Shown here: piece after piece, positions 1 through 64,000 of the stretch
Position numbering within the stretch: position 1 is the first letter of the stretch
Layout: each line of letters starts with the position of its first letter
From: Eledone cirrhosa
Taxonomy: Eukaryota
Direction of reading: 5' to 3'
DNA: 64,000 nt
Assembly: GCA_964016885.1 (NCBI GenBank)
Contig: OZ024741.1
Coordinates: 247,814,001-247,878,000 of the forward strand
Translations under genes and position numbers: made by a program
The notes under the pieces: model-generated
Seen by the model: only the letters and a program-made list of their open reading frames with translations
Database searches by the model: none
What the model was told of the DNA's origin: nothing

Positions 1-1275
1 CCTTGGCTGGCTGGAAATTATCTCCCCTTGGAGGCTGGAACTTATGTCCCCTTGGACGGCTAGAAATTACCTCTCCTTGGACGGCTGGATGATATGTCTC
101 CTTGGACGGCTGGATATTATCTCCCCTTGGACGGCTGGAAATTATCTCCCCTTGGACGGCTGGAAATTATCTCCCATTGGATGGCTAGATATTACCTCCC
201 CTTGGACGGCTGGAAATTATCTCCCCTTGATTTTTTTTACAAATTATCTCCCCCTGATTTTTTTTACAAATTATCTCCCCCTGATTTTTTTTTACAAATT
301 ATCTCCGCCTGATTTTTTTTTAAATATTATCTTCCCTTGGCTGGCTGGAAATTATCTCCCCTTGGACGGCTAGAAATTACCTCTCCTTGGACGGCTGGAA
401 ATTATCTCCCCTTGGACGGCTGGAAATTATCTCCCCTTGGACGGATAGATATTACCTCCCCTTGGACGGCTGGAAATTATCTCCCCTTGATTTTTTTACA
501 AATTATCTCCCCCTGATTTATTTTACAAATCTCCCAATGATTTTTAAAAAAAAATTATCTCCCCTTCGCTGGCTGGAAATTATCTCCCCTTGGACGCTGG
601 AAATTATCTCCCCTTGGACGGCTGAAAATTATCTCCCCTTGGACGGCTGGAAATTATCTCCCCTTGATTTTTTTTACAAATTATCTCCCCCTGATTTTTT
701 TTTACAAATTATCTCCGCCTGATTTTTTTTACAAATTATCTCCCCCTGATTTTTTTTTACAAATTATCTCCCCCTGATTTTTTTACAAATTATCTCCCCC
801 TGATTTTTTTTACAAATTATCTCCGCCTGATTTTTTAAAATATTATCTTCCCTTGGCTGGCGGGAAATTATCTCCCCTTGGACGGCTGGAAATTATCTGC
901 CCTTGATTTTCTTTTTACAAATTATCTTCCACTGATTTTTTTTACAAATTATCTCCACCTGATTTTTTAAAAAATTATCTCCCCTTGGACGGCTGGAAAT
1001 TATCTCCCCTTGGAAGGCTGGAAATTATCTCTCCTTGGACGGCTAGAATTTACCTCTCCTTGGACGGCTGAAAATTATCTCCCCTTGGACGGCTGGAAAT
1101 TATCTCCCCTTGATTTTTTTTACAAATTATCTCCCCCTGATTTTTTTTTACAAATTATCTCCCCCTGATTTTTTTTTACAAATTATCACCCCCTGATTTT
1201 TTTTTACAAATTATCTCCCCCTGATTTTTTTTACAAATTATCTCCCCCTGATTTTTTTACAAATTATCTCCCCTT

Positions 1276-1499
1276 GGCTGGCTGGAAATTATCTCCCCTT
1301 GGAGGCTGGAACTTATCTCCCCTTGGACGGCTAGAAATTACCTCTCCTTGGACGGCTGGAAAATATGTCTCCTTGGACGGCTGGATATTATCTCCCCTTG
1401 GACGGCTGGAAATTATCTCCCCTTGGACGGCTGGAAATTATCTCCCCTTGGATGGCTAGATATTACCTCCCCTTGGACGGCTGGAAATTATCTCCCCTT
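1276..1499 (+). repeat. Representative type-A block: landmark cassette of nine 24-25-bp monomers
   Basis: Ordered variants GGCTGGCTGG, GGAGGCTGGAAC (24 bp), GCTAGAAATTACCTCTCC, AAAATATGTCTCC, GGATATTATC, consensus x2, GGATGGCTAGATATTACC, consensus. The cassette or a truncated form recurs about 50 times (the MAGWKL.PLGGWNL ORFs mark it). Confidence 0.93.
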
Positions 1500-2996
1500 G
1501 ATTTTTTTACAAATTATCTCCCCCTGATTTTTTTTTACAAATTATCTCCCCCTGATTTTTTTTTACAAATTATCTCCCCCTGATTTTTGTTTACAAATTA
1601 TCTCCGCCTGATTTTTTTTTAAAATTATCTCCCCTTGGACGGCTGGAAATTATCTCCCCTTGGACGGCTAGAAATTACCTCTCCTTGGACGGCTGAAAAT
1701 TATCTCCCCTTGGACGGCTGGAAATTATCTCCCCTTGATTTTTTTACAAATTATCTCCCCCTGATTTTTTTTTTACAAATTATCTCCCCCTGATTTTTTT
1801 TTACAAATTATCTACCCCTGATTATTTTTAAAAATTATCTACCCCTGATTTTTTTTACAAATTATCTCCCCCTGATTTTTTTTACAAATTATCTCCCCCT
1901 GATTTTTTCTTTACAAATTATCTCCCCCTGATTTTTTTACAAATTATCTCCCCTTGATTTTTTTTACAACTTATCTGCGCCTGATTTTTTTTAAAAAATT
2001 ATCTCCCCTTGGACGGCTGGAAATTATCTCCCCTTGGACGGCTGGAAATTATCTCTCCTTGGACGGCTAGAATTTACCTCTCCTTGGACGGCTGAAAATT
2101 ATCTCCCCTTGGACGGCTGGGAATTATCTCCCCTTGATTTTTTTTACAAATTATCTCCCCCTGATTTTTTTTTACAAATTATCTCCCCCTGATTTTTTTT
2201 TACAAATTATCTCCCCCTGATTTTTTTTTACAAATTATCTCCCCCTGATTTTTTTACAAATTATCTCCCCTTGGCTGGCTGGAAATTATCTCCCCTTGGA
2301 GCCTGGAACTTATGTCCCCTTGGACGGCTAGAAATTACCTCTCCTTGGACGGCTGGAAAATATGTCTCCTTGGACGGCTGGATATTATCTCCCCTTGGAC
2401 GGCTGGAAATTATCTCCCCTTGGACGGCTGGAAATTATCTCCCCTTGGATGGCTAGATATTACCTCCCCTTGGACGGCTGGAAATTATCTCCCCTTGATT
2501 TTTTTTACAAATTATCTCCCCCTGATTTTTTTTACAAATTATCTCCCCCTGATTTTTTTTTACAAATTATCTCCCCCTGATTTTTGTTTACAAATTATCT
2601 CCGCCTATTTTTTTTAAAAAATTATCTCCCCTTGGACGGCTGGAAATTATCTCCCCTTGGACGGCTAGAAATTACCTCTCCTTGGACGGCTGAAAATTAT
2701 CTCCCCTTGGACGGCTGGAAATTATCTCCCCTTGATTTTTTTACAAATTATCTCCCCCTGATTTTTTTTTTACAAATTATCTCCCCCTGATTTTTTTTTT
2801 ACAAATTATCTCCCCCTGATTTTTTTACAAATTATCTCCCCCTAATTTTTTTTACAAATTATCTCCGCCTGATTTTTTTAAATATTATCTCTCCTTGGCT
2901 GGCGGGAAATTATCTCACCTTGGACGGCTGGAAATTATCTCCCCTTGGAAGAATGGAAATTATCTCCCCTTGGACGGCTGGAAATTATCTACCCCT

Positions 2997-3290
2997 GATT
3001 TTTTTTACAAATTATCTCCCCCTGATTTTTTTTACAAATTATCTCCCCCTGATTTTTTTTTACAAATTATCTACCCCTGATTTTTTTTACAAATTATCTC
3101 CCCCTGATTTTTTTTACAAATTATCTCCCCCTGATTTTTTTTTACAAATTATCTACCCCTGATTTTTTTTACAAATTATCTCCCCCTGATTTTTTTTTAC
3201 AAATTATCTCCCCCTGATTTTTTTACAAATTATCTCCCCCTGATTTTTTTTACAATCTCCGCCTGATTTTTTTAAAAATTATCTTCTCTT
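2997..3290 (+). repeat. Representative long type-B (poly-T) block
   Basis: About 11 consecutive GAT(7-9)ACAAATTATCTCCCCCT monomers with CTACCCC and CCGCC variants. Confidence 0.93.
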
Positions 3291-6200: not shown

Positions 6201-9200
6201 AAATTATCTCCCCTTGGACGGCTGGAAATTATCTACCCCTGATTTTTTTTACAAATTATCTCCCCCTGATTTTTTTTACAAATTATCTCCCCCTGATTTT
6301 TTTTACAAATTATCTACCCCTGATTTTTTTTACAAATTATCTCCCCCTGATTTTTTTTACAAATTATCTCCCCCTGATTTTTTTTTTACAAATTATCTCA
6401 CCCTGATTTTTTTACAAATTATCTCCCCCTGATTTTTTTTACAAATTATCTCCGCCTGATTTTTTTAAATATTATCTTCCCTTGGCTGGCGAGAAATTAT
6501 CTCCCCTTGAAGGGCTGAAAATTATCTCCCCTTGGACGGCTGGAAATTATCTCCCCTTGATTTTTTTTACAAATTATCTCCCCCTGATTTTTTTTACAAA
6601 TTATCTCCCCCTGATTTTTTTTACAAATTATCTCCCCCTGATTTTTTTTTACAAATTATCTGCCGCTGATTTTTTTTACAAATTATCTCCCCCTGATTTT
6701 TTTACAAATTATCTCCCCTTGGCTGGCTGGAAATTACCTCCCCTTGGAGGCTGGAATTTATCTCCCCTTGGACGGCTAGAAATTACCTCTCCTTGGACGG
6801 CTGGAAAATATGTCTCCTTGGACGGCTGGATATTATCTCCCCTTGGACGGCTGGAAATTATCTCCCCTTGGACGGCTGGAAATTATCTCCCCTTGGACGG
6901 ATAGATATTACCTCCCCTTGGACGGCTGGAAATTATCTCCCCTTGGACGGCTGGAAATTATCTCCCCATGGACGGCTGGAAATTATCTCCCCTTGGACGG
7001 CTATAAATTATCTCTCCTTGGACGGCTGAAAATTATCTCCCCTTGGACGGCTGGAAATTATCTCCCGTTGGACGGCTGGAAATTATCTCGCCTTGGACGG
7101 CTAGAATTTACCTCTCCTTGGACGGCTGAAAATTATCTCCCCTTGGACGGCTGGAAATTATCTCCCCTTGATTTTTTTTACAAATTATCTCCCCCTGATT
7201 TTTTTTTACAAATTATCTCCCCCTGATTTTTTTTTAGAAATTATCTCCCCCTGATTTTTTTTTACAAATTATCTCCCCCTGATTTTTTTTACAAATTATC
7301 TCCCCCCTGATTTTTTAACAAATTATCTCCCCTTGGCTGGCTGGAAATTATCTCCCCTTGGAGGCTGGAACTTATCTCCCCTTGGACGGCTAGAAATTAA
7401 CTCTCCTTGGACGGCTGGAAAATATGTCTCCTTGGACGGCTGGATATTATCTCCCCTTGGACGGCTGGAAATTATCTCCCCTTGGACGGCTGGAAATTAT
7501 CTCCCCTTGGATGGCTAGATATTACCTCCCCTTGGACGGCTGGAAATTATCTCCCTTTGATTTTTTTTACAAATTATCTCCCCCTGATTTTTTTTTACAA
7601 ATTATCTCCCCCTGATTTTTTTTTACAAATTATCTCCCCCTGATTTTTGTTTACAAATTATCTCCGCCTGATTTTTTTTTAAAAATTATCTCCCCTTGGA
7701 CGGCTGGAAATTATCTCCCCTTGGACGGCTAGAAATTACCTCTCCTTGGACGGCTGAAAATTATCTCCCCTTGGACGGCTGGAAATTATCTCCCCTTGAT
7801 TTTTTTACAAATTATCTCCCCCTGATTTTTTTTTTACAAATTATCTCCCCCTGATTTTTTTTTACAAATTATCTACCCCTGATTTTTTTTTACAAATTAT
7901 CTCCCCCTGATTTTTTTTACAAATTATCTCCCCCTGATTTTTTTTTACAAATTATCTCCCCCTGATTTTTTTACATATTATCTCCCCCTGATTTTTTTTA
8001 CAAATTATCTCCGCCTGATTTTTTTAAATATTATCTCTCCTTGGCTGGCGGGAAATTATCTCCCCTTGGACGGCTGGAAATTATCTCCCCTTGGAAGGAT
8101 GGAAATTATCTCCCCTTGGACGGCTAGAAATTATCTCTCTTTGGACGGCTGGAAATTATCACCCCTTGAGTTTTTTACAAATTATCTCCCCCTGATTTTT
8201 TTTACAAATCTCCCAGTGATTTTTTAAAAAAAATTATCTCCCCTTCGCTGGCTGGAAATTATCTCCCCTTGGACGCTGGAAATTATAGCACCTTGGAGGG
8301 CTGGAAATTATCTTCCCTTGGACGGCTGGAAATTATCTCCCCTTGATTTTTTTTACAAATTATCTCCCCCTGATTTTTTTTTACAAATTATCTCCCCCTG
8401 ATTTTTTTTACAACTTATCTGCGCCTGATTTTTTTAAAAAAATTATCTCCCCTTGGACGGCTGGAAATTATCTCCCCTTGGACGGCTGGAAATTATCTCT
8501 CCTTGGACGGCTAGAATTTACCTCTCCTTGGACGGCTGAAAATTATCTCCCCTTGGACGGCTGGAAATTATCTCCCCTTGATTTTTTTTACAAATTATCT
8601 CCCCCTGATTTTTTTTTACAAATTATCTCCCCCTGATTTTTTTTACAAATTATCTCCCCCTGATTTTTTTTTACAAATTATCTCCCCCTGATTTTTTTTA
8701 CAAATTATCTCCCCCTGATTTTCTTACAAATTATCTCCCCTTGGCTGGCTGGAAATTATCTCCCCTTGGAGGCTGGAACTTATGTCCCCTTGGACGGCTA
8801 GAAATTACCTCTCCTTGGACGGCTGGATGATATGTCTCCTTGGACGGCTGGATATTATCTCCCCTTGGACGGCTGGAAATTATCTCCCCTTGGACGGCTG
8901 GAAATTATCTCCCATTGGATGGCTAGATATTACCTCCCCTTGGACGGCTGGAAATTATCTCCCCTTGATTTTTTTTACAAATTATCTCCCCCTGATTTTT
9001 TTTACAAATTATCTCCCCCTGATTTTTTTTTACAAATTATCTCCGCCTGATTTTTTTTTAAATATTATCTTCCCTTGGCTGGCTGGAAATTATCTCCCCT
9101 TGGACGGCTAGAAATTACCTCTCCTTGGACGGCTGGAAATTATCTCCCCTTGGACGGCTGGAAATTATCTCCCCTTGGACGGATAGATATTACCTCCCCT

Positions 9201-11919
9201 TGGACGGCTGGAAATTATCTCCCCTTGATTTTTTTACAAATTATCTCCCCCTGATTTATTTTACAAATCTCCCAATGATTTTTAAAAAAAAATTATCTCC
9301 CCTTCGCTGGCTGGAAATTATCTCCCCTTGGACGCTGGAAATTATCTCCCCTTGGACGGCTGAAAATTATCTCCCCTTGGACGGCTGGAAATTATCTCCC
9401 CTTGATTTTTTTTACAAATTATCTCCCCCTGATTTTTTTTTACAAATTATCTCCGCCTGATTTTTTTTACAAATTATCTCCCCCTGATTTTTTTTTACAA
9501 ATTATCTCCCCCTGATTTTTTTACAAATTATCTCCCCCTGATTTTTTTTACAAATTATCTCCGCCTGATTTTTTAAAATATTATCTTCCCTTGGCTGGCG
9601 GGAAATTATCTCCCCTTGGACGGCTGGAAATTATCTGCCCTTGATTTTCTTTTTACAAATTATCTTCCACTGATTTTTTTTACAAATTATCTCCACCTGA
9701 TTTTTTAAAAAATTATCTCCCCTTGGACGGCTGGAAATTATCTCCCCTTGGAAGGCTGGAAATTATCTCTCCTTGGACGGCTAGAATTTACCTCTCCTTG
9801 GACGGCTGAAAATTATCTCCCCTTGGACGGCTGGAAATTATCTCCCCTTGATTTTTTTTACAAATTATCTCCCCCTGATTTTTTTTTACAAATTATCTCC
9901 CCCTGATTTTTTTTTACAAATTATCACCCCCTGATTTTTTTTTACAAATTATCTCCCCCTGATTTTTTTTACAAATTATCTCCCCCTGATTTTTTTACAA
10001 ATTATCTCCCCTTGGCTGGCTGGAAATTATCTCCCCTTGGAGGCTGGAACTTATCTCCCCTTGGACGGCTAGAAATTACCTCTCCTTGGACGGCTGGAAA
10101 ATATGTCTCCTTGGACGGCTGGATATTATCTCCCCTTGGACGGCTGGAAATTATCTCCCCTTGGACGGCTGGAAATTATCTCCCCTTGGATGGCTAGATA
10201 TTACCTCCCCTTGGACGGCTGGAAATTATCTCCCCTTGATTTTTTTACAAATTATCTCCCCCTGATTTTTTTTTACAAATTATCTCCCCCTGATTTTTTT
10301 TTACAAATTATCTCCCCCTGATTTTTGTTTACAAATTATCTCCGCCTGATTTTTTTTTTAAATTATCTCCCCTTGGACGGCTGGAAATTATCTCCCCTTG
10401 GACGGCTAGAAATTACCTCTCCTTGGACGGCTGAAAATTATCTCCCCTTGGACGGCTGGAAATTATCTCCCCTTGATTTTTTTACAAATTATCTCCCCCT
10501 GATTTTTTTTTTACAAATTATCTCCCCCTGATTTTTTTTTACAAATTATCTACCCCTGATTTTTTTTTACAAATTATCTACCCCTGATTTTTTTTACAAA
10601 TTATCTCCCCCTGATTTTTTTTACAAATTATCTCCCCCTGATTTTTTTTTTACAAATTATCTCCCCCTGATTTTTTTACAAATTATCTCCCCTTGATTTT
10701 TTTTACAACTTATCTGCGCCTGATTTTTTTTAAAAAATTATCTCCCCTTGGACGGCTGGAAATTATCTCCCCTTGGACGGCTGGAAATTATCTCTCCTTG
10801 GACGGCTAGAATTTACCTCTCCTTGGACGGCTGAAAATTATCTCCCCTTGGACGGCTGGGAATTATCTCCCCTTGATTTTTTTACAAATTATCTCCCCCT
10901 GATTTTTTTTTACAAATTATCTCCCCCTGATTTTTTTTTACAAATTATCTCCCCCTGATTTTTTTTTACAAATTATCTCCCCCTGATTTTTTTACAAATT
11001 ATCTCCCCTTGGCTGGCTGGAAATTATCTCCCCTTGGAGCCTGGAACTTATGTCCCCTTGGACGGCTAGAAATTACCTCTCCTTGGACGGCTGGAAAATA
11101 TGTCTCCTTGGACGGCTGGATATTATCTCCCCTTGGAGGGCTGGAAATTATCTCCCCTTGGACGGCTGGAAATTATCTCCCCTTGGATGGCTAGATATTA
11201 CCTCCCCTTGGACGGCTGGAAATTATCTCCCCTTGATTTTTTTTACAAATTATCTCCCCCTGATTTTTTTTTACAAATTATCTCCCCCTGATTTTTTTTT
11301 ACAAATTATCTCCCCCTGATTTTTGTTTACAAATTATCTCCGCCTATTTTTTTTAAAAAATTATCTCCCTTGGACGGCTGGAAATTATCTCCCCTTGGAC
11401 GGCTAGAAATTACCTCTCCTTGGACGGCTGAAAATTATCTCCCCTTGGACGGCTGGAAATTATCTCCCCTTGATTTTTTTACAAATTATCTCCCCCTGAT
11501 TTTTTTTTTACAAATTATCTCCCCCTGATTTTTTTTTTTACAAATTATCTCCCCCTGATTTTTTTACAAATTATCTCCCCCTAATTTTTTTTACAAATTA
11601 TCTCCGCCTGATTTTTTTAAATATTATCTCTCCTTGGCTGGCGGGAAATTATCTCACCTTGGACGGCTGGAAATTATCTCCCCTTGGAAGAATGGAAATT
11701 ATCTCCCCTTGGACGGCTGGAAATTATCTACCCCTGATTTTTTTTACAAATTATCTCCCCCTGATTTTTTTTACAAATTATCTCCCCCTGATTTTTTTTT
11801 ACAAATTATCTACCCCTGATTTTTTTTACAAATTATCTCCCCCTGATTTTTTTTACAAATTATCTCCCCCTGATTTTTTTTTACAAATTATCTACCCCTG
11901 ATTTTTTTTACAAATTATC

Positions 11920-14160
11920 TCCCCCTGATTTTTTTTTACAAATTATCTCCCCCTGATTTTTTTACAAATTATCTCCCCCTGATTTTTTTTACAATCTCCG
12001 CCTGATTTTTTAAAAAATTATCTTCTCTTGGCTGGCTGGAAATTATCTCCCCTTGGACACTGGAAATTATAGCCACTTGGAGGGCTGGAAATTATCTTCC
12101 CTTGGACGGCTGGAAATTATCTCCCCTTGATTTTTTTTACAAATTATCTCCGCCTGATTTTTTTTTACAAATTATCTCCCCCTGATTTTTTTTTACAAAT
12201 TATCTACCCCTGATTTTTTTTTACAAATTATCTCCCCCTGATTTTTTTTACAAATTATCTCCCCCTGATTTCTCTTTTACAAATTATCTCCCCCTGATTT
12301 TTTTACAAATTATCTCCCCCTGATTTTTTTTACAAATTATCTCCGCCTGATTTTTTTAAATATTATCTTCCCTTGGCTGGCGGGAAATTATCTCCCCTTG
12401 GACGGCTGGAAATTATCTACCCTTGATTTTCTTTTTACAAATTATCTTCCACTGATTTTTTTTACAAATTATCTCCACCTGATTTTTTAAAAAATTATCT
12501 CCCCTTGGAAGGCTGGAAATTATCTCCCCTTGGCTGGAAATTATCTCCCCTTGGACGGCTAGAAATTATCTCTCTTTGGACGGCTGGAAATTATCACCCC
12601 TTGAGTTTTTTACAAATTATCTCCCCCTGATTTTTTTACAAATTATCTCCCCCTGATTTTTTTTACAAATTATCTCCGCCTGATTTTTTTAAATATTATC
12701 TTCCCTTGGCTGGCGGGAAATTATCTCCCCTTGGACGGCTGAAAATTATCTCCTCTTGGACGGCTGGAAATTATCTCCCCTTGATTTTTTTTACAAATTA
12801 TCTCCCCCTGATTTTTTTTTACAAATTATCTCCCCCTGATTTTTTTACAAATTATCTCCCCCGATTTTTTTTTACAAATTATCTCCCCCTGATTTTTTTT
12901 ACAAATTATCTCCCTCTGATTTTTTTACAAATTATCTCCCCTTGGCTGGCTGGAAATTATCTCCCCTTGGACGGCTAGAAATTACCTCTCCTTGGACGGC
13001 TGGAAAATATGTCTCCTTGGACGGCTGGATATTATCTCCCCTTGGACGGCTGGAAATTATCTCCGCTTGGACGGCTGGAAATTATCTCCCCTTGGACGGA
13101 TATATATTACCTCCCCTTGGACGGCTGGAAATTATCTCCCCTTGATTTTTTTACAAATTATCTCCCCCTGATTTATTTTACAAATCTCCCAATGATTTTT
13201 AAAAAAAAATTATCTCCCCTTCGCTGGCTGGAAATTATCTCCCCTTGGACGCTGGAAATTATATCCCCTTGGAGGGCTGGAAATTATCTTCCCTTGGACG
13301 GCTGGAAATTATCTCCCCTTGATTTTTTTTACAAATTATCTCCCCCTGATTTTTTTTACAAATTATCACCCCCTGATTTTTTTTACAAATTATCTACCCC
13401 TGATTTTTTTTACAAATTATCTCCCCCTGATTTTGTTTTACAAATTATCTCCCCCTGATTTTTTTTTACAAATTATCTCCCCCTGATTTTTTTACAAATT
13501 ATCTCCCCCTGATTTTTTTTACAATCTCCGCCTGATTTTTTTAAAAATTATCTTCTCTTGGCTGGCTGGAAATTATCTCCCCTTGGACACTGGAAATTAT
13601 AGCCACTTGGAGGGCTGGAAATTATCTTCCCTTGGACGGCTGGAAATTATCACCCCTTGATTTTTTTTACAAATTATCTCCGCCTGATTTTTTTTTACAA
13701 ATTATCTCCCCCTGATTTTTTTTTACAAATTATCTAACCCTGATTTTTTTTTACAAATTATCTCCCCCTGATTTTTTTTACAAATTATCTCCCCCTGATT
13801 TCTCTTTTACAAATTATCTCCCCCTGATTTTTTTACAAATTATCTCCCCCTGATTTTTTTTACAAATTATCTCCGCCTGATTTTTTTAAATATTATCTTC
13901 CCTTGGCTGGCGGGAAATTATCTCCCCTTGGACGGCTGGAAATTATCTACCCTTGATTTTCTTTTTACAAATTATCTTCCACTGATTTTTTTTACAAATT
14001 ATCTCCACCTGATTTTTTAAAAAATTATCTCCCCTTGGAAGGCTGGAAATTATCTCCCCTTGGCTGGAAATTATCTCCCCTTGGACGGCTAGAAATTATC
14101 TCTCTTTGGACGGCTGGAAATTATCACCCCTTGAGCTTTTTACAAATTATCTCCCCCTGA
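11920..14160 (+). repeat. ~700-bp segment duplicated at a 1,530-bp offset
   Basis: Markers ACAATCTCCG, GGACACTGG, TAGCCACTT (12071/13601), TTTCTCTTTT, TTCCACTG and the 21-bp monomer (~12531/~14061) recur in the same order. Confidence 0.85.
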
Positions 14161-15099
14161 TTTTTTTTACAAATCTCCCTGTGATTTTTTAAAAAAAATT
14201 ATCTCCCCTTCGCTGGCTGGAAATTATCTCCCCTTGGACGCTGGAAATTATAGCCCCTTGGAGGGCTGGAAATTATCTTCCCTTGGACGGCTGGAAATTA
14301 TCTCCCCTTGATTTTTTTTACAAATTATCTCCCCCTGATTTTTTTTTACAAATTATCTCCCCCTGATTTTTTTTACAACTTATCTGCGCCTGATTTTTTT
14401 TTAAAAATTATCTCCCCTTGGACGGCTGGAAATTATCTCCCCTTGGACGGCTGGTAATTATCTCTCCTTGGACGGCTAGAATTTACCTCTCCTTGGACGG
14501 CTGAAAATTATCTCCCCTTGGACGGCTGGAAATTATCTCCCCTTGATTTTTTTTACAAATTATCTCCCCCTGATTTTTTTTTACAAATTATCTCCCCCTG
14601 ATTTTTTTTTACAAATTATCTCCCCCTGATTTTTTTTTACAAATTATCTCCCCTTGGCTGGCTGGAAATTATCTCCCCTTGGAGGCTGGAACTTATCTCC
14701 CCTTGGACGGCTAGAAATTACCTCTCCTTGGACGGCTGGAAAATATGTCTCCTTGGACGGCTGGATATTATCTCCCCTTGGACGGCTGGAAATTATCTCC
14801 CCTTGGACGGCTGAAAATTATCTCCCCTTGATTTTTTTTACAAATTATCTCCCCCTGATTTTTTTTTACAAATTATCTCCCCCTGATTTTTGTTTACAAA
14901 TTATCTCCGCCTGATTTTTTAAAAAAATTATCTCCCCTTGGACGGCTGGAAATTATCTCCCCTTGGACGGATAGAAATTACCTCTCCTTGGACGGCTGAA
15001 AATTATCTCCCCTTTGACGGCTGGAAATTATCTCCCCTTGATTTTTTTACAAATTATCTCCCCCTGATTTTTTTTTTACAAATTATCTCCCCCTGATTT

Positions 15100-18000
15100 T
15101 TTTTTACAAATTATCTACCCCTGATTTTTTTTTACAAATTATCTCCCCCTGATTTTTTTTACAAATTATCTCCCCCTGATTTTTTTTTACAAATTATCTC
15201 CCCCTGATTTTTTTACAAATTATCTCCCCCTGATTTTTTTTACAAATTATCTCCGCCTGATTTTTTTAAATATTATCTCTCCTTGGCTGGCGGGAAATTA
15301 TCTCCCCTTGGAGGGCTGGAAATTATCTCCCCTTGGAAGGATGGAAATTATCTCCCCTTGGACGGCTGGAAATTATCTACCCCTGATTTTTTTTACAAAT
15401 TATCTCCCCCTGATTTTTTTTACAAATTATCTCCCCCTGATTTTTTTTACAAATTATCTACCCCTGATTTTTTTTACAAATTATCTCCCCCTGATTTTTT
15501 TTACAAATTATCTCCCCCTGATTTTTTTTTTACAAATTATCTCACCCTGATTTTTTTACAAATTATCTCCCCCTGATTTTTTTTACAAATTATCTCCGCC
15601 TGATTTTTTTAAATATTATCTTCCCTTGGCTGGCGGGAAATTATCTCCCCTTGAAGGGCTGAAAATTATCTCCCCTTGGACGGCTGGAAATTATCTCCCC
15701 TTGATTTTTTTTACAAATTATCTCCCCCTGATTTTTTTTTACAAATTATCTCCCCCTGATTTTTTTTACAAATTATCTCCCCCTGATTTTTTTTTACAAA
15801 TTATCTGCCGCTGATTTTTTTTACAAATTATCTCCCCCTGATTTTTTTACAAATTATCTCCCCTTGGCTGGCTGGAAATTACCTCCCCTTGGAGGCTGGA
15901 ATTTATCTCCCCTTGGACGGCTAGAAATTACCTCTCCTTGGACGGCTGGAAAATATGTCTCCTTGGACGGCTGGATATTATCTCCCCTTGGACGGCTGGA
16001 AATTATCTCCCCTTGGACGGCTGGAAATTATCTCCCCTTGGACGGATAGATATTACCTCCCCTTGGACGGCTGGAAATTATCTCCCCTTGGACGGCTGGA
16101 AATTATCTCCCCATGGACGGCTGGAAATTATCTCCCCTTGGACGGCTAGAAATTATCTCTCCTTGGACGGCTGAAAATTATCTCCCCTTGGACGGCTGGA
16201 AATTATCTCCCGTTGGACGGCTGGAAATTATCTCGCCTTGGACGGCTAGAATTTACCTCTCCTTGGACGGCTGAAAATTATCTCCCCTTGGACGGCTGGA
16301 AATTATCTCCCCTTGATTTTTTTTACAAATTATCTCCCCCTGATTTTTTTTTACAAATTATCTCCCCCTGATTTTTTTTTACAAATTATCTCCCCCTGAT
16401 TTTTTTTTACAAATTATCTCCCCCTGATTTTTTTTACAAATTATCTCCCCCCTGATTTTTTAACAAATTATCTCCCCTTGGCTGGCTGGAAATTATCTCC
16501 CCTTGGAGGCTGGAACTTATCTCCCCTTGGACGGCTAGAAATTACCTCTCCTTGGACGGCTGGAAAATATGTCTCCTTGGACGGCTGGATATTATCTCCC
16601 CTTGGACGGCTGGAAATTATCTCCCCTTGGACGGCTGGAAATTATCTCCCCTTGGATGGCTAGATATTACCTCCCCTTGGACGGCTGGAAATTATCTCCC
16701 TTTGATTTTTTTTACAAATTATCTCCCCCTGATTTTTTTTTACAAATTATCTCCCCCTGATTTTTTTTTACAAATTATCTACCCCTGATTTTTTTTTACA
16801 AATTATCTCCCCCTGATTTTTTTTACAAATTATCTCCCCCTGATTTTTTTTTACAAATTATCTCCTCCTGATTTTTTTACAAATTATCTCCCCCTGATTT
16901 TTTTTACAAATTATCTCCGCCTGATTTTTTTAAATATTATCTCTCCTTGGCTGGCGGGAAATTATCTCCCCTTGGACGGCTGAAAATTATCTCCCCTTGG
17001 AAGGATGGAAATTATCTCCCCTTGGACGGCTGGAAATTATCTACCCCTGATTTTTTTTACAAATTATCTCCCCCTGATTTTTTTTACAAATTATCTCCCC
17101 CTGATTTTTTTTACAAATTATCTACCCCTGATTTTTTTTACAAATTATCTCCCCCTGATTTTTTTTACAAATTATCTCCCCCTGATTTTTTTTTTACAAA
17201 TTATCTCACCCTGATTTTTTTACAAATTATCTCCCCCTGATTTTTTTTACAAATTATCTCCGCCTGATTTTTTTAAATATTATCTTCCCTTGGCTGGCGG
17301 GAAATTATCTCCCCTTGAAGGGCTGAAAATTATCTCCCCTTGGACGGCTGGAAATTATCTCCCCTTGATTTTTTTTACAAATTATCTCCCCCTGATTTTT
17401 TTTTACAAATTATCTCCCCCTGATTTTTTTTACAAATTATCTCCCCCTGATTTTTTTTTACAAATTATCTGCCGCTGATTTTTTTTACAAATTATCTCCC
17501 CCTGATTTTTTTACAAATTATCTCCCCTTGGCTGGCTGGAAATTACCTCCCCTTGGAGGCTGGAATTTATCTCCCCTTGGACGGCTAGAAATTACCTCTC
17601 CTTGGACGGCTGGAAAATATGTCTCCTTGGACGGCTGGATATTATCTCCCCTTGGACGGCTGGAAATTATCTCCCCTTGGACGGCTGGAAATTATCTCCC
17701 CTTGGACGGATAGATATTACCTCCCCTTGGACGGCTGGAAATTATCTCCCCTTGGACGGCTGGAAATTATCTCCCCATGGACGGCTGGAAATTATCTCCC
17801 CTTGGACGGCTAGAAATTATCTCTCCTTGGACGGCTGAAAATTATCTCCCCTTGGACGGCTGGAAATTATCTCCCGTTGGACGGCTGGAAATTATCTCGC
17901 CTTGGACGGCTAGAATTTACCTCTCCTTGGACGGCTGAAAATTATCTCCCCTTGGACGGCTGGAAATTATCTCCCCTTGATTTTTTTTACAAATTATCTC

Positions 18001-23400: not shown

Positions 23401-26400
23401 GACGGCTGGAAATTATCTCCCCTTGATTTTTTTTACAAATTATCTCCCCCTGATTTTTTTTTACAAATTATCTCCCCCTGATTTTTTTTACAAATTATCT
23501 ACCCCTGATTTTTTTTTACAAATTATCTCCCCTTGGCTGGCTGGAAATTATCTCCCCTTGGAGGCTGGAACTTATCTCCCCTTGGACGGCTAGAAATTAC
23601 CTCTCCTTGGACGGCTGGAAAATATGTCTCCTTGGACGGCTGGATATTATCTCCCCTTGGACGGCTGGAAATTATCTCCCCTTGGACGGCTGAAAATTAT
23701 CTCCCCTTGATTTTTTTTACAAATTATCTCCCCCTGATTTTTTTTTACAAATTATCTCCCCCTGATTTTTGTTTACAAATTATCTCCGCCTGATTTTTTA
23801 AAAAAATTATCTCCCCTTGGACGGCTGGAAATTATCTCCCCTTGGACGGATAGAAATTACCTCTCCTTGGACGGCTGAAAATTATCTCCCCTTTGACGGC
23901 TGGAAATTATCTCCCCTTGATTTTTTTACAAATTATCTCCCCCTGATTTTTTTTTTACAAATTATCTCCCCCTGATTTTTTTTTTACAAATTATCTACCC
24001 CTGATTTTTTTTTACAAATTATCTCCCCCTGATTTTTTTTACAAATTATCTCCCACTGATTTTTTTTTTACAAATTATCTCCCCCTGATTTTTTTACAAA
24101 TTATCTCCCCCTGATTTTTTTTACAAATTATATCCGCCTGATTTTTTTAAATATTATCTCTCCTTGGCTGGCGGGAAATTATCTCCCCTTGGACGGCTGG
24201 AAATTATCTCCCCTTGGAAGGATGGAAATTATCTCCCCTTGGACGGCTAGAAATTATCTCTCTTTGGACGGCTGGAAATTATCACCCCTTGAGCTTTTTA
24301 CAAATTATCTCCCCCTGATTTTTTTTACAAATCTCCCTGTGATTTTTTAAAAAAAATTATCTCCCCTTCGCTGGCTGGAAATTATCTCCCCTTGGACGCT
24401 GGAAATTATAGCCCCTTGGAGGGCTGGAAATTATCTTCCCATGGACGGCTGGAAATTATCTCCCCTTGATTTTTTTTACAAATTATCTCCCCCTGATTTT
24501 TTTTTACAAATTATCTCCCCCTGATTTTTTTTACAACTTATCTGCGCCTGATTTTTTTTTAAAAATTATCTCCCCTTGGACGGCTGGAAATTATCTCCCC
24601 TTGGACGGCTGGAAATTATCTCTCCTTGGACGGCTAGAATTTACCTCTCCTTGGACGGCTGAAAATTATCTCCCCTTGGACGGCTGGAAATTATCTCCCC
24701 TTGATTTTTTTTACAAATTATCTCCCCCTGATTTTTTTTTACAAATTATCTCCCCCTGATTTTTTTTTACAAATTATCTACCCCTGATTTTTTTTTACAA
24801 ATTATCTCCCCTTGGCTGGCTGGAAATTATCTCCCCTTGGAGGCTGGAACTTATCTCCCCTTGGACGGCTAGAAATTACCTCTCCTTGGACGGCTGGAAA
24901 ATATGTCTCCTTGGACGGCTGGATATTATCTCCCCTTGGACGGCTGGAAATTATCTCCCCTTGGACGGCTGAAAATTATCTCCCCTTGATTTTTTTTACA
25001 AATTATCTCCCCCTGATTTTTTTTTACAAATTATCTCCCCCTGATTTTTGTTTACAAATTATCTCCGCCTGATTTTTTAAAAAAATTATCTCCCCTTGGA
25101 CGGCTGGAAATTATCTCCCCTTGGACGGATAGAAATTACCTCTCCTTGGACGGCTGAAAATTATCTCCCCTTTGACGGCTGGAAATTATCTCCCCTTGAT
25201 TTTTTTACAAATTATCTCCCCCTGATTTTTTTTTTACAAATTATCTCCCCCTGATTTTTTTTTACAAATTATCTACCCCTGATTTTTTTTTACAAATTAT
25301 CTCCCCCTGATTTTTTTTACAAATTATCTCCCCCTGATTTTTTTTTACAAATTATCTCCCCCTGATTTTTTTACAAATTATCTCCCCCTGATTTTTTTTA
25401 CAAATTATCTCCGCCTGATTTTTTTAAATATTATCTCTCCTTGGCTGGCGGGAAATTATCTCCCCTTGGACGGCTGGAAATTATCTCCCCTTGGAAGGAT
25501 GGAAATTATCTCCCCTTGGACGGCTGGAAATTATCTACCCCTGATTTTTTTTACAAATTATCTCCCCCTGATTTTTTTTACAAATTATCTCCCCCTGATT
25601 TTTTTTACAAATTATCTACCCCTGATTTTTTTTACAAATTATCTCCCCCTGATTTTTTTTACAAATTATCTCCCCCTGATTTTTTTTTTACAAATTATCT
25701 CACCCTGATTTTTTTACAAATTATCTCCCCCTGATTTTTTTTACAAATTATCTCCGCCTGATTTTTTTAAATATTATCTTCCCTTGGCTGGCGGGAAATT
25801 ATCTCCCCTTGAAGGGCTGAAAATTATCTCCCCTTGGACGGCTGGAAATTATCTCCCCTTGATTTTTTTTACAAATTATCTCCCCCTGATTTTTTTTTAC
25901 AAATTATCTCCCCCTGATTTTTTTTACAAATTATCTCCCCCTGATTTTTTTTTACAAATTATCTGCCGCTGATTTTTTTTACAAATTATCTCCCCCTGAT
26001 TTTTTTACAAATTATCTCCCCTTGGCTGGCTGGAAATTACCTCCCCTTGGAGGCTGGAATTTATCTCCCCTTGGACGGCTAGAAATTACCTCTCCTTGGA
26101 CGGCTGGAAAATATGTCTCCTTGGACGGCTGGATATTATCTCCCCTTGGACGGCTGGAAATTATCTCCCCTTGGACGGCTGGAAATTATCTCCCCTTGGA
26201 CGGATAGATATTACCTCCCCTTGGACGGCTGGAAATTATCTCCCCTTGATTTTTTTTACAAATTATCTCCCCCTGATTTTTTTTTACAAATTATCTCCCC
26301 CTGATTTTTTTTTACAAATTATCTCCCCCTGATTTTTTTTTTACAAATTATCTCCGCTTGATTTTTTAAAAAAATTATCTCCCCTTGGACGGCTGGAAAT

Positions 26401-29400
26401 TATCTCCCCATGGACGGCTGGAAATTATCTCCCCTTGGACGGCTAGAAATTATCTCTCCTTGGACGGCTGAAAATTATCTCCCCTTGGACGGCTGCAAAT
26501 TATCTCCCCTTGATTTTTTTTATAAATTATCTCCCCCTGATTTTTTTTACAAATTATCTCCCCCTGATTTTTTTTACAAATCTCCCAGTGATTTTTTAAA
26601 AAAATTATCTCCCCTTGGACGGCTGGAAATTATCTCCCCTTGGACGGCTGGAAATTATCTCGCCTTGGACGGCTAGAATTTACCTCTCCTTGGACGGCTG
26701 AAAATTATCTCCCCTTGGACGGTTGGAAATTATCTCCCCTTGATTTTTTTTACAAATTATCTCCCCCTGATTTTTTTTTACAAATTATCTCCCCCTGATT
26801 TTTTTTTACAAATTATCTCCCCCTGATTTTTTTTTACAAATTATCTCCCCCTGATTTTTTTTACAAATTATCTCCCCCCTGATTTTTTTACAAATTATCT
26901 CCCCTTGGCTGGCTGGAAATTATCTCCCCTTGGAGGCTGGAACTTATCTCCCCTTGGACGGCTAGAAATTACCTCTCCTTGGACGGCTGGAAAATATGTC
27001 TCCTTGGACGGCTGGATATTATCTCCCCTTGGACGGCTGGAAATTATCTCCCCTTGGACGGCTGGAAATTATCTCCCCTTGGATGGCTAGATATTACCTC
27101 CCCTTGGACGGCTGGAAATTATCTCCCTTTGATTTTTTTTACAAATTATCTCCCCCTGATTTTTTTTTACAAATTATCTCCCCCTGATTTTTTTTTACAA
27201 ATTATCTCCCCCTGATTTTTGTTTACAAATTATCTCCGCCTGATTTTTTTTTAAAAATTATCTCCCCTTGGACGGCTGGAAATTATCTCCCCTTGGACGG
27301 CTAGAAATTACCTCTCCTTGGACGGCTGAAAATTATCTCCCCTTGGACGGCTGGAAATTATCTCCCCTTGATTTTTTTACAAATTATCTCCCCCTGATTT
27401 TTTTTTTACAAATTATCTCCCCCTGATTTTTTTTTACAAATTATCTACCCCTGATTTTTTTTTACAAATTATCTCCCCCTGATTTTTTTTACAAATTATC
27501 TCCCCCTGATTTTTTTTTACAAATTATCTCCCCCTGATTTTTTTACAAATTATCTCCCCCTGATTTTTTTTACAAATTATCTCCGCCTGATTTTTTTAAA
27601 TATTATCTCTCCTTGGCTGGCGGGAAATTATCTCCCCTTGGACGGCTGGAAATTATCTCCCCTTGGAAGGATGGAAATTATCTCCCCTTGGACGGCTAGA
27701 AATTATCTCTCTTTGGACGGCTGGAAATTATCACCCCTTGAGTTTTTTACAAATTATCTCCCCCTGATTTTTTTTACAAATCTCCCAGTGATTTTTAAAA
27801 AAAAATTATCTCCCCTTCGCTGGCTGGAAATTATCTCCCCTTGGACGCTGGAAATTATAGCCCCTTGGAGGGCTTGAAATTATCTTCCCTTGGACGGCTG
27901 GAAATTATCTCCCCTTGATTTTTTTTTACAAATTATCTCCCCCTGATTTTTTTTTACAAATTATCTCCCCCTGATTTTTTTTTACAACTTATCTGCGCCA
28001 GATTTTTTTAAAAAAATTATCTCCCCTTGGACGGCTGGAAATTATCTCCCCTTGGACGGCTGGAAATTATCTCTCCTTGGACGGCTAGAATTTACCTCTC
28101 CTTGGACGGCTGAAAATTATCTCCCCTTGGACGGCTGGAAATTATCTCCCCTTGATTTTTTTTACAAATTATCTCCCCCTGATTTTTTTTTACGAATTAT
28201 CTCCCCCTGATTTTTTTTTACAAATTATCTCCCCCTGATTTTTTTTTACAAATTATCTCCCCCTGATTTTTTTTACAAATTATCTCCCTCTGATTTTTTT
28301 ACAAATTATCTCCCCTTGGCTGGCTGGAAATTATCTCCCCTAGGAGGCTGGAACTTATCTCGCCTTGGACGGCTAGAAATTACCTCTCTTTGGACGGCTG
28401 GAAAATATGTCTCCTTGGACGGCTGGATATTATCTCCCCTTGGACGGCTGGAAATTATCTCCCCTTGGACGGCTGGAAATTATCTCCCCTTGGATGGCTA
28501 GATATTACCTCCCCTTGGACGGCTGGAAATTATCTCCCCTTGATTTTTTTTACAAATTATCTCCCCCTGATTTTTTTTTACAAATTATCTCCCCCGATTT
28601 TTTTTTACAAATTATCTCCCCCTGATTTTTTTTTACAAATTATCTCCCCCTGATTTTTGTTTACAAATTATCTCCCCTTGGACGGCTGGAAATTATCTCC
28701 CCTTGGACGGCTAGAAATTACCTCTCCTTGGACGGCTGAAAATTATCCTCCCTTGGACGGCTGGAAATTATCTCCCCTTGATTTTTTTACAAATTATCTC
28801 CCCCTGATTTTTTTTTTACAAATTATCTCACCCTGATTTTTTTTACAAATTATCTACCCCTGATTTTTTTTTACAAATTATCTCCCCCTGATTTTTTTTA
28901 CAAATTATCTCCCACTGATTTTTTTTTTACAAATTATCTCCCCCTGATTTTTTTACAAATTATCTCCCCCTGATTTTTTTTACAAATTATATCCGCCTGA
29001 TTTTTTTAAATATTATCTCTCCTTGGCTGGCGGGAAATTATCTCCCCTTGGACGGCTGGAAATTATCTCCCCTTGGAAGGATGGAAATTATCTCCCCTTG
29101 GACGGCTAGAAATTATCTCTCTTTGGACGGCTGGAAATTATCACCCCTTGAGCTTTTTACAAATTATCTCCCCCTGATTTTTTTTACAAATCTCCCTGTG
29201 ATTTTTTAAAAAAAATTATCTCCCCTTCGCTGGCTGGAAATTATCTCCCCTTGGACGCTGGAAATTATAGCCCCTTGGAGGGCTGGAAATTATCTTCCCA
29301 TGGACGGCTGGAAATTATCTCCCCTTGATTTTTTTTACAAATTATCTCCCCCTGATTTTTTTTTACAAATTATCTCCCCCTGATTTTTTTTACAACTTAT

Positions 29401-35400: not shown

Positions 35401-35800
35401 AATTATAGCCCCTTGGAGGGCTGGAAATTATCTTCCCTTGGACGGCTGGAAATTATCTCCCCTTGATTTTTTTTACAAATTATCTCCCCCTGATTTTTTT
35501 TTACAAATTATCTCCCCCTGATTTTTTTTACAACTTATCTGCGCCTGATTTTTTTTTAAAAATTATCTCCCCTTGGACGGCTGGAAATTATCTCCCCTTG
35601 GACGGCTGGAAATTATCTCTCCTTGGACGGCTAGAATTTACCTCTCCTTGGACGGCTGAAAATTATCTCCCCTTGGACGGCTGGAAATTATCTCCCCTTG
35701 ATTTTTTTTACAAATTATCTCCCCCTGATTTTTTTTTACAAATTATCTCCCCCTGATTTTTTTTTACAATCTCCCCCTGATTTTTTTTTACAAATTATCT
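20500..35800 (+). repeat. 6,138-bp higher-order repeat, about 2.5 tandem copies
   Basis: Pairs at +6,138: 23533/29671, 24466/30604, 25441/31579, 26905/33043, 27638/33776, 28316/34454, 29325/35463. Upstream pairs are at +6,302/6,303 (20603/26905, 22013/28316) because of a 166-bp extra segment. Confidence 0.92.
22700..25300 (+). repeat. 1,278-bp tandem duplication nested in the 6,138-bp unit (repeated at ~28.9-31.4 kb)
   Basis: Pairs 23188/24466, 23533/24812 and 29325/30604. The marker TTCCCATGG is at ~23158, 24437, 29295 and 30574. Confidence 0.88.
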
Positions 35801-60300: not shown

Positions 60301-63300
60301 TTTTTAAAAATTATCTCCCCTTGGACGGCTGGAAATTATCTCCCCTTGGACGGCTGGTAATTATCTCTCCTTGGACGGCTAGAATTTACCTCTCCTTGGA
60401 CCGCTGAAAATTATCTCCCCTTGGACGGCTGGAAATTATCTCCCCTTGATTTTTTTTACAAATTATCTCCCCCTGATTTTTTTTTACAAATTATCTCCCC
60501 CTGATTTTTTTTTACAAATTATCTCCCCCTGATTTTTTTTTACAAATTATCTACCCCTGATTTTTTTTTACAAATTATCTCCCCTTGGCTGGCTGGAAAT
60601 TATCTCCCCTTGGAGGCTGGAACTTATCTCCCCTTGGACGGCTAGAAATTACCTCTCCTTGGACGGCTGGAAAATATGTCTCCTTGGACGGCTGGATATT
60701 ATCTCCCCTTGGACGGCTGGAAATTATCTCCCCTTGGACGGCTGAAAATTATCTCCCCTTGATTTTTTTTACAAATTATCTCCCCCTGATTTTTTTTTAC
60801 AAATTATCTCCCCCTGATTTTTGTTTACAAATTATCTCCGCCTGATTTTTTAAAAAAATTATCTCCCCTTGGACGGCTGGAAATTATCTCCCCTTGGACG
60901 GATAGAAATTACCTCTCCTTGGACGGCTGAAAATTATCTCCCCTTTGACGGCTGGAAATTATCTCCCCTTGATTTTTTTACAAATTATCTCCCCCTGATT
61001 TTTTTTTTACAAATTATCTCCCCCTGATTTTTTTTTACAAATTATCTACCCCTGATTTTTTTTTACAAATTATCTCCCCCTGATTTTTTTTACAAATTAT
61101 CTCCCCCTGATTTTTTTTTACAAATTATCTCCTCCTGATTTTTTTACAAATTATCTCCCCCTGATTTTTTTTACAAATTATCTCCGCCTGATTTTTTTAA
61201 ATATTATCTCTCCTTGGCTGGCGGGAAATTATCTCCCCTTGGACGGCTGAAAATTATCTCCCCTTGGAAGGATGGAAATTATCTCCCCTTGGACGGCTGG
61301 AAATTATCTACCCCTGATTTTTTTTACAAATTATCTCCCCCTGATTTTTTTTACAAATTATCTCCCCCTGATTTTTTTTACAAATTATCTACCCCTGATT
61401 TTTTTTACAAATTATCTCCCCCTGATTTTTTTTACAAATTATCTCCCCCTGATTTTTTTTTTACAAATTATCTCACCCTGATTTTTTTACAAATTATCTC
61501 CCCCTGATTTTTTTTACAAATTATCTCCGCCTGATTTTTTTAAATATTATCTTCCCTTGGCTGGCGGGAAATTATCTCCCCTTGAAGGGCTGAAAATTAT
61601 CTCCCCTTGGACGGCTGGAAATTATCTCCCCTTGATTTTTTTTACAAATTATCTCCCCCTGATTTTTTTTTACAAATTATCTCCCCCTGATTTTTTTTAC
61701 AAATTATCTCCCCCTGATTTTTTTTTACAAATTATCTGCCGCTGATTTTTTTTACAAATTATCTCCCCCTGATTTTTTTACAAATTATCTCCCCTTGGCT
61801 GGCTGGAAATTACCTCCCCTTGGAGGCTGGAATTTATCTCCCCTTGGACGGCTAGAAATTACCTCTCCTTGGACGGCTGGAAAATATGTCTCCTTGGACG
61901 GCTGGATATTATCTCCCCTTGGACGGCTGGAAATTATCTCCCCTTGGACGGCTGGAAATTATCTCCCCTTGGACGGATAGATATTACCTCCCCTTGGACG
62001 GCTGGAAATTATCTCCCCTTGGACGGCTGGAAATTATCTCCCCATGGACGGCTGGAAATTATCTCCCCTTGGACGGCTAGAAATTATCTCTCCTTGGACG
62101 GCTGAAAATTATCTCCCCTTGGACGGCTGGAAATTATCTCCCGTTGGACGGCTGGAAATTATCTCGCCTTGGACGGCTAGAATTTACCTCTCCTTGGACG
62201 GCTGAAAATTATCTCCCCTTGGACGGCTGGAAATTATCTCCCCTTGATTTTTTTTACAAATTATCTCCCCCTGATTTTTTTTTACAAATTATCTCCCCCT
62301 GATTTTTTTTTACAAATTATCTCCCCCTGATTTTTTTTTACAAATTATCTCCCCCTGATTTTTTTTACAAATTATCTCCCCCCTGATTTTTTAACAAATT
62401 ATCTCCCCTTGGCTGGCTGGAAATTATCTCCCCTTGGAGGCTGGAACTTATCTCCCCTTGGACGGCTAGAAATTACCTCTCCTTGGACGGCTGGAAAATA
62501 TGTCTCCTTGGACGGCTGGATATTATCTCCCCTTGGACGGCTGGAAATTATCTCCCCTTGGACGGCTGGAAATTATCTCCCCTTGGATGGCTAGATATTA
62601 CCTCCCCTTGGACGGCTGGAAATTATCTCCCTTTGATTTTTTTTACAAATTATCTCCCCCTGATTTTTTTTTACAAATTATCTCCCCCTGATTTTTTTTT
62701 ACAAATTATCTCCCCCTGATTTTTGTTTACAAATTATCTCCGCCTGATTTTTTTTTTTAAATTATCTCCCCTTGGACGGCTGGAAATTATCTCCCCTTGG
62801 ACGGCTAGAAATTACCTCTCCTTGGACGGCTGAAAATTATCTCCCCTTGGACGGCTGGAAATTATCTCCCCTTGATTTTTTTACAAATTATCTCCCCCTG
62901 ATTTTTTTTTACAAATTATCTACCCCTGATTTTTTTTTACAAATTATCTCCCCCTGATTTTTTTTACAAATTATCTCCCCCTGATTTTTTTTTACAAATT
63001 ATCTCCCCCTGATTTTTTTACAAATTATCTCCCCCTGATTTTTTTAAATATTATCTCTCCTTGGCTGGCGGGAAATTATCTCCCCTTGGACGGCTGGAAA
63101 TTATCTCCCCTTGGAAGGATGGAAATTATCTCCCCTTGGACGGCTAGAAATTATCTCTCTTTGGACGGCTGGAAATTATCACCCCTTGAGTTTTTTACAA
63201 ATTATCTCCGCCTGATTTTTTTTACAAATCTCCCAGTGATTTTTAAAAAAAAATTATCTCCCCTTCGCTGGCTGGAAATTATCTCCCCTTGGACGCTGGA

Positions 63301-64000
63301 AATTATAGCCCCTTGGAGGGCTTGAAATTATCTTCCCTTGGACGGCTGGAAATTATCTCCCCTTGATTTTTTTTTACAAATTATCTCCCCCTGATTTTTT
63401 TTTACAAATTATCTCCCCCTGATTTTTTTTTACAACTTATCTGCGCCTGATTTTTTTAAAAAAATTATCTCCCCTTGGACGGCTGGAAATTATCTCCCCT
63501 TGGACGGCTGGAAATTATCTCTCCTTGGACGGCTAGAATTTACCTCTCCTTGGACGGCTGAAAATTATCTCCCCTTGGACGGCTGGAAATTATCTCCCCT
63601 TGATTTTTTTTTTACAAATTATCTCCCCCTGATTTTTTTTTACGAATTATCTCCCCCTGATTTTTTTTTACAAATTATCTCCCCCTGATTTTTTTTTACA
63701 AATTATATCCCCCTGATTTTTTTTACAAATTATCTCCCTCTGATTTTTTTACAAATTATCTCCCCTTGGCTGGCTGGAAATTATCTCCCCTAGGAGGCTG
63801 GAACTTATCTCCCCTTGGACGGCTAGAAATTACCTCTCTTTGGACGGCTGGAAAATATGTCTCCTTGGACGGCTGGATATTATCTCCCCTTGGACGGCTG
63901 GAAATTATCTCCCCTTGGACGGCTGGAAATTATCTCCCCTTGGATGGCTAGATATTACCTCCCCTTGGACGGCTGGAAATTATCTCCCCTTGATTTTTTT
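54390..64000 (+). repeat. Long-range copy of ~8.5-19.7 kb (offset ~45.9 kb, then ~44.27 kb)
   Basis: Pairs 8832/54733, 9125/55026 and 10012/55913 are +45,901; 12706/58609 is +45,903; 14654/60585 is +45,931; 16947/61214 is +44,267; 19501/63766 is +44,265. Confidence 0.92.

Follow-up and report, generated by a model that had tools for sequence, protein, structure and literature searches.

Why should two satellite monomers with dissimilar spacers carry the same core? The question is raised by a 64,000-nucleotide stretch of the genome of the octopus Eledone cirrhosa (contig OZ024741.1, hereafter C2; C2:247,814,001-247,878,000, + strand). This stretch, the window (positions 1..64000), is an A/B block satellite throughout and forms part of a sampled ~2.7-Mb + strand array on C2. 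An initial annotation had described it as a two-state satellite with a constant 16-bp core followed by either a GC-rich or a poly-T spacer, and had suggested that the core is a constrained element, such as a protein-binding site or recombination core, displayed in two contexts. The two-monomer satellite is confirmed, and the feature is real. As an explanation for the ~17-Mb satellite as a whole we favor, as reasonably probable, a history in which a single replacement of the spacer in an A-type unit likely gave rise to B, and in which the core corresponds to a word that is clustered and conserved next to telomeres and to which a chromosome-end protein likely binds.

By chain alignment the window comprises 2,452 monomers in a single orientation (+), 1,195 of type A and 1,257 of type B, and TRF reported the whole window as one array. 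The A monomer consists of the core followed by GACGGCTGG (25 bp; a consensus example lies at 139..163, +). The B monomer consists of the core followed by A T6-11 AC, with T7-T10 in 1,248 of the 1,257 window monomers (99%). A blocks have a GC content of 50% and B blocks of 28%. The arrangement in runs was borne out: A runs comprised 2-18 monomers and B runs 1-15, and 436 of the 437 runs were longer than a single monomer. Pure runs reached at most A18 and B15 within the window; in the remaining A/B samples the maxima were A16 and B17. Constancy of the core did not hold to the same degree. Both monomers share it, but the exact 16-bp sequence AAATTATCTCCCCYTG occurred only 1,421 times among the 2,452 monomers, and in a pool of 6,421 monomers the share with a fully intact core was 51% for A monomers and 63% for B monomers that follow another B. 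The T-runs of B were sharply bounded genome-wide, with T12 in 7 places in the context searched and T14 in none.

Higher-order structure in the array is irregular. Of 219 A blocks, 68 were distinct, and runs as well as multi-kilobase blocks have been duplicated, with duplications visible at 1.3, 5.2, 6.1, 8.7 and 45.9 kb. A recent tandem duplication of 6,138 bp lies at 23474..35775 (+; at least 98% identical in 200-bp windows), and three segments at 8465..16825 (+) are repeated about 45.9 kb downstream as a long-range duplication. Mean identity to the templates was 0.92-0.96 in the A/B stretches sampled. A fixed, nucleosome-sized A+B unit was considered and rejected, as A+B blocks were 125-625 bp long (median 287) and the A and B lengths were weakly anticorrelated (rho -0.13, p=0.05). 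The picture is that of satellite DNA with megabase head-to-tail arrays of near-identical monomers, in which multi-monomer units and larger blocks were re-amplified and older variants (A' and D, see below) lie at the array edges.

A variable Y had been noted in the core at the outset. It is present, but it does not vary freely. In the window, core position 14 was T in 961/975 A-A, 200/218 A-B and 218/218 B-A cores, and C in 1,001/1,038 B-B cores. This junction pattern recurred on all contigs sampled, namely C1, C2, C3, C4, C21 and two unplaced contigs. If crossovers were spread evenly over the core, T14 would be expected at about 2/15 A-B junctions. A further relic base, C18, was present in 146 of the 218 first-A monomers of the window and in none of its 974 other A monomers, and C18 is the state of a sister monomer, A'. 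Both relics can be followed along the sequence: the first B monomer of the run at 214..240 (+) keeps T14, a putative fossil of the founding A-to-B junction; an inner B monomer (241..267, +) carries C14 and has lost its match to the word of the telomere element described below; the last B monomer of the run (296..323, +) has the junction-enriched variants CCGCC and a T-run ending in AA; and the first A after a B run at 1261..1285 (+) has C18. Because relic bases are found at both junction types, the mixing of A and B appears to be mostly inherited, and the A/B junctions are likely fossils of one founding event rather than products of recurrent recombination.

These relics bear directly on the idea of a recombination core, or more broadly of a recombination box or binding site under selection in both monomer types, with A and B shuffled repeatedly. 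A minority of junctions do look secondary (C14 in 18/218 A-B cores; the modern A18 in 72/218 first-A monomers), but ordinary in-register exchange already predicts such junctions. All B-A junctions and 92% of the A-B junctions carry T14, the relic C18 is confined to first-A monomers, B-B cores mismatch the telomere word, and the core is no better conserved than the spacer. Junction relics and core-versus-spacer variation together largely refute repeated shuffling, which we regard as highly improbable. The junctions trace mostly to one founding event.

The further spacer types and pure A-type runs that the initial annotation had advised looking for do exist elsewhere in the genome, as pure A' runs and D runs. 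On C3, the A/B array passes directly into pure A' runs (25 bp, spacer GCCGGCTGG) separated by a 200-350-bp AT-rich cassette. Farther out come 19-bp D runs, which belong to a composite unit of ~1.2 kb; its other parts are an AT block of greater length and a GC block with many GCGCATGCGC and TTTCCGG words. On C1, A/B passes directly into A' plus cassette, which was found at 251.77-251.81 and 252.02-252.21 Mb, and a lone A' run lies at 231.58 Mb. A 2.8-kb D island is located on C2 at 192.18 Mb. The 14-bp core ATTATCTCCCCTTG is kept in all A' and D layers. A search for other spacers after the 16-bp core (core + C/T) gave 4,643 matches, and among the matches listed, all but one lay inside the C1 array. 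The D composite unit (L097:1-3300, - strand; L136:5139-8200) resembles a stack of promoter-factor words. It holds 55 GCGCATGCGC palindromes, which we take to be NRF1-like words, conserved at 89-100% versus 33-78% in the flanks (a selection-biased comparison), together with 14 TTTCCGG words, presumably ETS-like, and an AT-rich dyad. The C2 copy of this unit lies inside retroelement-like coding DNA.

Position and the C18 relic suggest the order D, then A', then A/B. In the simplest history, one poly-T spacer would have replaced the GC spacer in an A'-type run, and the poly-T unit would then have been duplicated and gained C14. The inner A' units would have become A, and runs would subsequently have grown and shrunk, spreading by unequal exchange and slippage. 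Two other origins were considered, and neither was supported. If A and B were reciprocal deletions of one longer ancestor, a poly-T followed by the tail of the A spacer should exist, but this had 0 matches genome-wide. If the B spacer were a shrunken piece of the AT cassette, it should resemble the cassettes, but the best match beat shuffles in only one of the 14 cassette classes shown (p~0.02; others p=0.16-0.93).

The core extends beyond the satellite. In a core scan of chromosome-end stretches, the word TT(A/G/C)T(C/T)TCCC(C)TT (11-12 bp; an example from the array, TTATCTCCCCTT, lies at 142..153, +) was found immediately inward of the telomere tracts of C7, C9 and C10. Alignment showed that these three ends have in common a non-tandem, AT-rich element of ~1.6 kb, in which 10-11 words occur within 1.4-1.7 kb. 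The words face either way and often form inverted pairs with a spacing of ~20 bp. From 500 shuffles, 0.02 words were expected, and a background of 183,338 bases contained 6. One site of the element is the exact 13-mer TTATCTCCCCTTG. Both ends of all 27 chromosome-size contigs were examined over 1.5 or 10 kb each; 10 ends had a terminal TTAGGG tract, and all 10 of these carried the element, with 7-11 words each. The copies (L142:3758-5450, L144:399-1780 and L146:4799-6420, with further ones in L158, L173, L175, L177, L185, L186 and L195) were 87-93% identical to the C10 copy.

Within this element the words were more conserved than their surroundings once three sites were set aside, and not significantly so with them. 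In word columns, 2/112 were variable versus 216/1,198 in the flanks (Fisher 4e-7), and the seven ends that were not used in defining the word gave 2/112 versus 166/1,207 (4e-5). A gap-free test agreed (2/77 word columns versus 101/820 flanking columns; p=0.008, shift test 0.025). The three sites hold 19 of the 21 variable word columns; two of them are inverted at some ends, and one lies in the poorly covered outer 186 bases. Conservation held for G/C and A/T columns separately, and variation climbed to 16% within five bases of the word. At three ends, small inversions flip a word in place, and the word is kept. Because some sites copy one internal module, there are fewer than 14 independent site origins. 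The clustering, the two orientations, the differing flanks and the local conservation lead us to infer a protein-binding site, and the word at telomeres is likely such a putative site. A GATA-factor site (consensus WGATAR) was considered and rejected because TTATCT is present in only 3 of the 14 listed sites of the element. A search of the element against Rfam returned 8 weak matches, all far below gathering scores, and no family. On the inner side of the motif cluster, a stretch of ~350 bases is conserved more strongly still (16/344 columns variable), and homology between chromosome ends extends at least 3.6 kb inward.

The satellite itself presents a different picture. The protein-binding site proposed from the window has support from the telomere element outside it, where the word is clustered and conserved, and none from inside the array. 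In the pooled monomers, per-site variation of A was 5.2% in the core versus 9.9% in the spacer (p=0.058), the most variable spacer site being a CpG, and for B it was 3.4% versus 3.8% (p=0.55). Core and spacer were also similar in A' (7.3% versus 6.3%, p=0.46) and D (4.8% versus 7.0%, p=0.30). Amplification has made the copies relatives of one another, so that the p-values serve as a guide only. Within the array, the core shows no special conservation. The initial annotation had itself held that cores as variable as spacers would favor a neutral origin by one ancestral event followed by amplification, and it is to this case that the junctions, with their one likely founding event, point. Nor is one core displayed in two contexts: the word was intact in 58% of A-A, 77% of A-B and 69% of B-A cores, and in only 3 of the 1,038 B-B cores. 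The array is laid out as word clusters separated by word-free poly-T blocks, and A' plus cassette and D plus cassette have the same layout. Intact words number about 14 per kb, some 250,000 copies in A blocks, versus roughly 500 at the chromosome ends.

These figures open the way to a neutral satellite, in which the word is functional at chromosome ends only, the repeat seeded by one copy expanded through drift, and the protein does not bind the arrays, which would be inert, closed heterochromatin. We regard this as a serious possibility, although not the one we would choose. It accounts for the equal variability of core and spacer in all four monomers (A, B, A' and D), for the lack of correlation between site variation in A and B cores (rho 0.32, p=0.23), for loss of the word from B-B cores (about 42% of monomers), for a single founding junction, and for the position of the arrays among numerous unrelated satellites, a mosaic from which the word is absent. 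It accounts less well for a 14-bp core retained from D through A' to A despite changes in the length and sequence of the spacer, and for word clusters that alternate with AT-rich blocks in all three generations, though these points are weak as the relatives were recognized by their core. It also leaves aside that T-runs are so tightly bounded, which could be mutational.

Our preferred explanation, the chromosome-end binding site, makes use of the same layout. Because the same word is clustered and strongly conserved beside telomeres, the satellite is likely a massive amplification of that site. One sequence-specific protein would bind the word, and the array would present putative binding-site clusters (A blocks) set apart by site-free poly-T blocks. 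Such an array would recruit or soak up the end protein in heterochromatin near the middle of giant chromosomes. Single sites would be redundant there and may hence escape selection.

Several observations weigh against this explanation. The fixed positions of the telomere word were not clearly spared in A' (6.3% versus 8.6%) or D (4.9% versus 4.5%), and variation in the A core reached 12% at T7 and 21% at C11. Because these positions are not clearly spared in A, A' or D, the satellite itself shows no selection for the word. At the telomeres, word and flanks did not differ significantly when all sites were included (21/134 versus 233/1,216 variable, p=0.35), and the ends are not independent samples because chromosome ends exchange sequence. 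A source for the poly-T spacer of B was not found in the genome-wide search or in the cassette comparison. Finally, the direction from telomere element to satellite is putative, and protein binding to the word is a candidate function.

The distribution of the arrays raises a further possible role. The assembly comprises 3.0 Gb, with four giant contigs of 443, 416, 379 and 379 Mb and TTAGGG telomeres, and its mitochondrial COX1 matches without a difference a public protein of Eledone cirrhosa, the curled octopus. A 38-mer of A had 56,233 matches genome-wide and its reversed control had 0; scaled by the density in the window or in 37 sampled stretches, this count gives an array total of 17-18 Mb, or about 0.6% of the genome. 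Four read runs of the same organism, which may be source data of the assembly, contained 63-84% of 68 sampled words. Five rare-variant searches mapped, among the matches listed, at least the following arrays, with bounds taken from samples rather than continuous reads. Arrays were located on C1 at 251.2-252.2 Mb; on C2 as an island at 244.3 Mb and at 245.6-248.3 Mb (+) and 248.5-251.13 Mb (-); on C3 at 163.35 to at least 165.4 Mb (+), 165.87 to at least 167.8 Mb (-) and 169.08 Mb (+); on C4 at 140.1 Mb and at 205.5 to at least 206.2 Mb; on C21 at 17.55-17.70 of 35.4 Mb; and on the unplaced contigs C123 and C1499. The sampled arrays could make up roughly 14-15 of the ~17 Mb.

Relative positions were 57% of the length of C1, 59-60% of C2, 43-45% of C3, 54% of C4 and 50% of C21. 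On both C2 and C3, two megabase arrays converge in inverted orientation, with about 0.2-0.45 Mb between them. Converging inverted pairs of this kind would be expected if like-oriented arrays underwent centric fusion, as in mouse Robertsonian chromosomes. A mid-chromosome tract of degenerate (CCCTAA)n, about 40 kb long, lies at C2:251,167,600-251,207,600, ~33 kb from the array end, and an (AGCACCA)n-type repeat and an assembly gap lie between the two. Passages of a cephalopod genome paper also describe extra karyotype changes in Eledone (PMC12682272).

It may be, then, that this is a functional centromeric satellite of giant, probably fused chromosomes, in which A/B blocks organize nucleosomes and inverted pairs mark centric fusions. 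The mid-chromosome positions (43-60%), the converging pairs, the degenerate telomere repeat beyond the C2 array and the homogeneous, layered arrays all speak for this. However, arrays were found on at least 5 of 27 chromosome-size contigs plus the two unplaced ones, and at two places on C4, among the matches listed; presence on 5 of 27 so far argues against a general centromere repeat. The A+B block length is not fixed, and on C2 the telomere-like repeat is found outside the two arrays rather than at the center of the pair, without an adjoining telomere element. We therefore consider a centromeric role doubtful. A bolder combination, in which a telomere-capping binding word was amplified about 500-fold at fusion points of giant chromosomes, A blocks dock the end protein, B blocks act as spacers, and end chromatin became centromere or pericentromere, appears unlikely to us. 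If it were true, it would be a traceable centromeric satellite born from a subtelomeric binding site.

Other repeats surround the arrays. An AT-rich ~45/91-bp satellite lies directly before the C1 array (251.183-251.19 Mb; L029:1-7000). Further satellites around the arrays include a 227-bp GC-rich, a 13-bp poly-T, a 16-bp, an 88-bp and a (ACACCACCA)n-type repeat (stretches L063, L035, L103 and L104 at C2 244.3-245.0 Mb; L064, L119, L132 and L208; L047 and L048; L113; L101, L117 and L118), and the 13-bp poly-T satellite adjoins arrays on C2, C3 and C4. The core word was not found in any neighboring satellite tested. On C4 at 139.95-140.30 Mb (L210, L075, L211), a small A/B island lies between oppositely oriented copies of one short repeat, in a foldback-like arrangement. 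C2 also has nuclear COX1-like matches at 345.14, 115.16-115.18, 163.79 and 206.20 Mb that are likely mitochondrial insertions.

What emerges is a satellite of ~17 Mb whose ancestry can be read, together with a telomere-cap element that every end with an assembled tract has in common. The word of 11-12 bp is, in turn, a concrete bait for its putative protein. The case also illustrates that a shared satellite core can be a drifting copy of a site selected elsewhere. Should a single protein bind at both places, the chromatin of chromosome ends would be tied to satellite blocks in the interior of probably fused chromosomes, and one species would then allow a test of the idea that subtelomeric DNA can give rise to centromeric DNA (PMC3698924).

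Other sequence data bear on how widely the family may occur. In read runs under nine other organism labels (8 studies), 21-43% of the 68 sampled words were present, a result that trace carry-over of so abundant a repeat would also produce; pure consensus words make up 115 of the 682 distinct 31-mers. In three of the nine, no continuous copy of the telomere element was found at a likeness of 80%, although pieces of 18-42 bases were. Words like AAGGGAGATAAC, the core word on the reverse strand, seem very common in bivalve repeats, and the word may predate octopods. Among the papers listed in literature searches by sequence word and by topic, there was no description of the satellite family or of a link between its core and a telomere word, and no paper on cephalopod centromeres, subtelomeres or satellites; those listed for sequence words were all unrelated, judging by their titles. 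The main text of a 325-genome centromere atlas (10.64898/2026.09.17.752431) names no octopus, Eledone, cephalopod or mollusc, and its supplements could bear on novelty; the passages covered of two cephalopod genome papers (PMC12682272; 10.1101/2025.08.29.672809) do not mention satellites. The part that appears to be new, judging from these searches, is the putative link of the satellite core to a conserved telomere-cap word.

The two-state layout, by comparison, is mostly explained by one event followed by amplification, and the pattern is close to known satellites with a shared box. According to passages of PMC8097292, centromeric tandem repeats of Meloidogyne incognita share a 19-bp box that is conserved, GC-rich and dyad-forming and is tied to CenH3 by ChIP and imaging. 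As in that nematode, divergent short monomers here have one common box (the 14-bp ATTATCTCCCCTTG in D, A' and A, with one change in B) and form monomeric and mosaic arrays. Unlike the M. incognita box, the octopus core drifts in the arrays and is no less variable than the rest of the monomer, is broken in B, is not a palindrome by inspection, and has conserved copies beside telomeres. In satellites of Meloidogyne chitwoodi and M. fallax, parts of PMC3694981 describe Box 1 and Box 2 at the junctions of ~170 bp monomers, with frequent shuffling inferred. Complex arrays of dissimilar monomers joined at a common ~17-bp motif are seen there too, but octopus monomers are 19-29 bp long, and T14 and C18 relics at their junctions point mostly to one founding event rather than to recurrent rearrangement at the box.

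The telomeric side finds its counterpart in Plasmodium falciparum, where SPE2 arrays are bound by PfSIP2, as shown experimentally; the abstract mentions no megabase internal SPE2 satellite (PMC2829057). In both cases a short motif is clustered in telomere-associated DNA of many ends, here at all 10 that have a tract. Unlike SPE2 and PfSIP2, the octopus word is known from sequence alone, and the two motifs have no sequence relation. Primate alpha satellite, with monomers of ~171 bp, has layered flanks. Its CENP-B box is found in one monomer of the dimer, according to portions of a review (PMC8122249). The octopus satellite is similar in having two monomer types, one with a putative binding word, as well as higher-order duplication and older layers at its edges. 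However, while alpha monomers are homologous along their whole length, octopus A and B differ by a replaced spacer.

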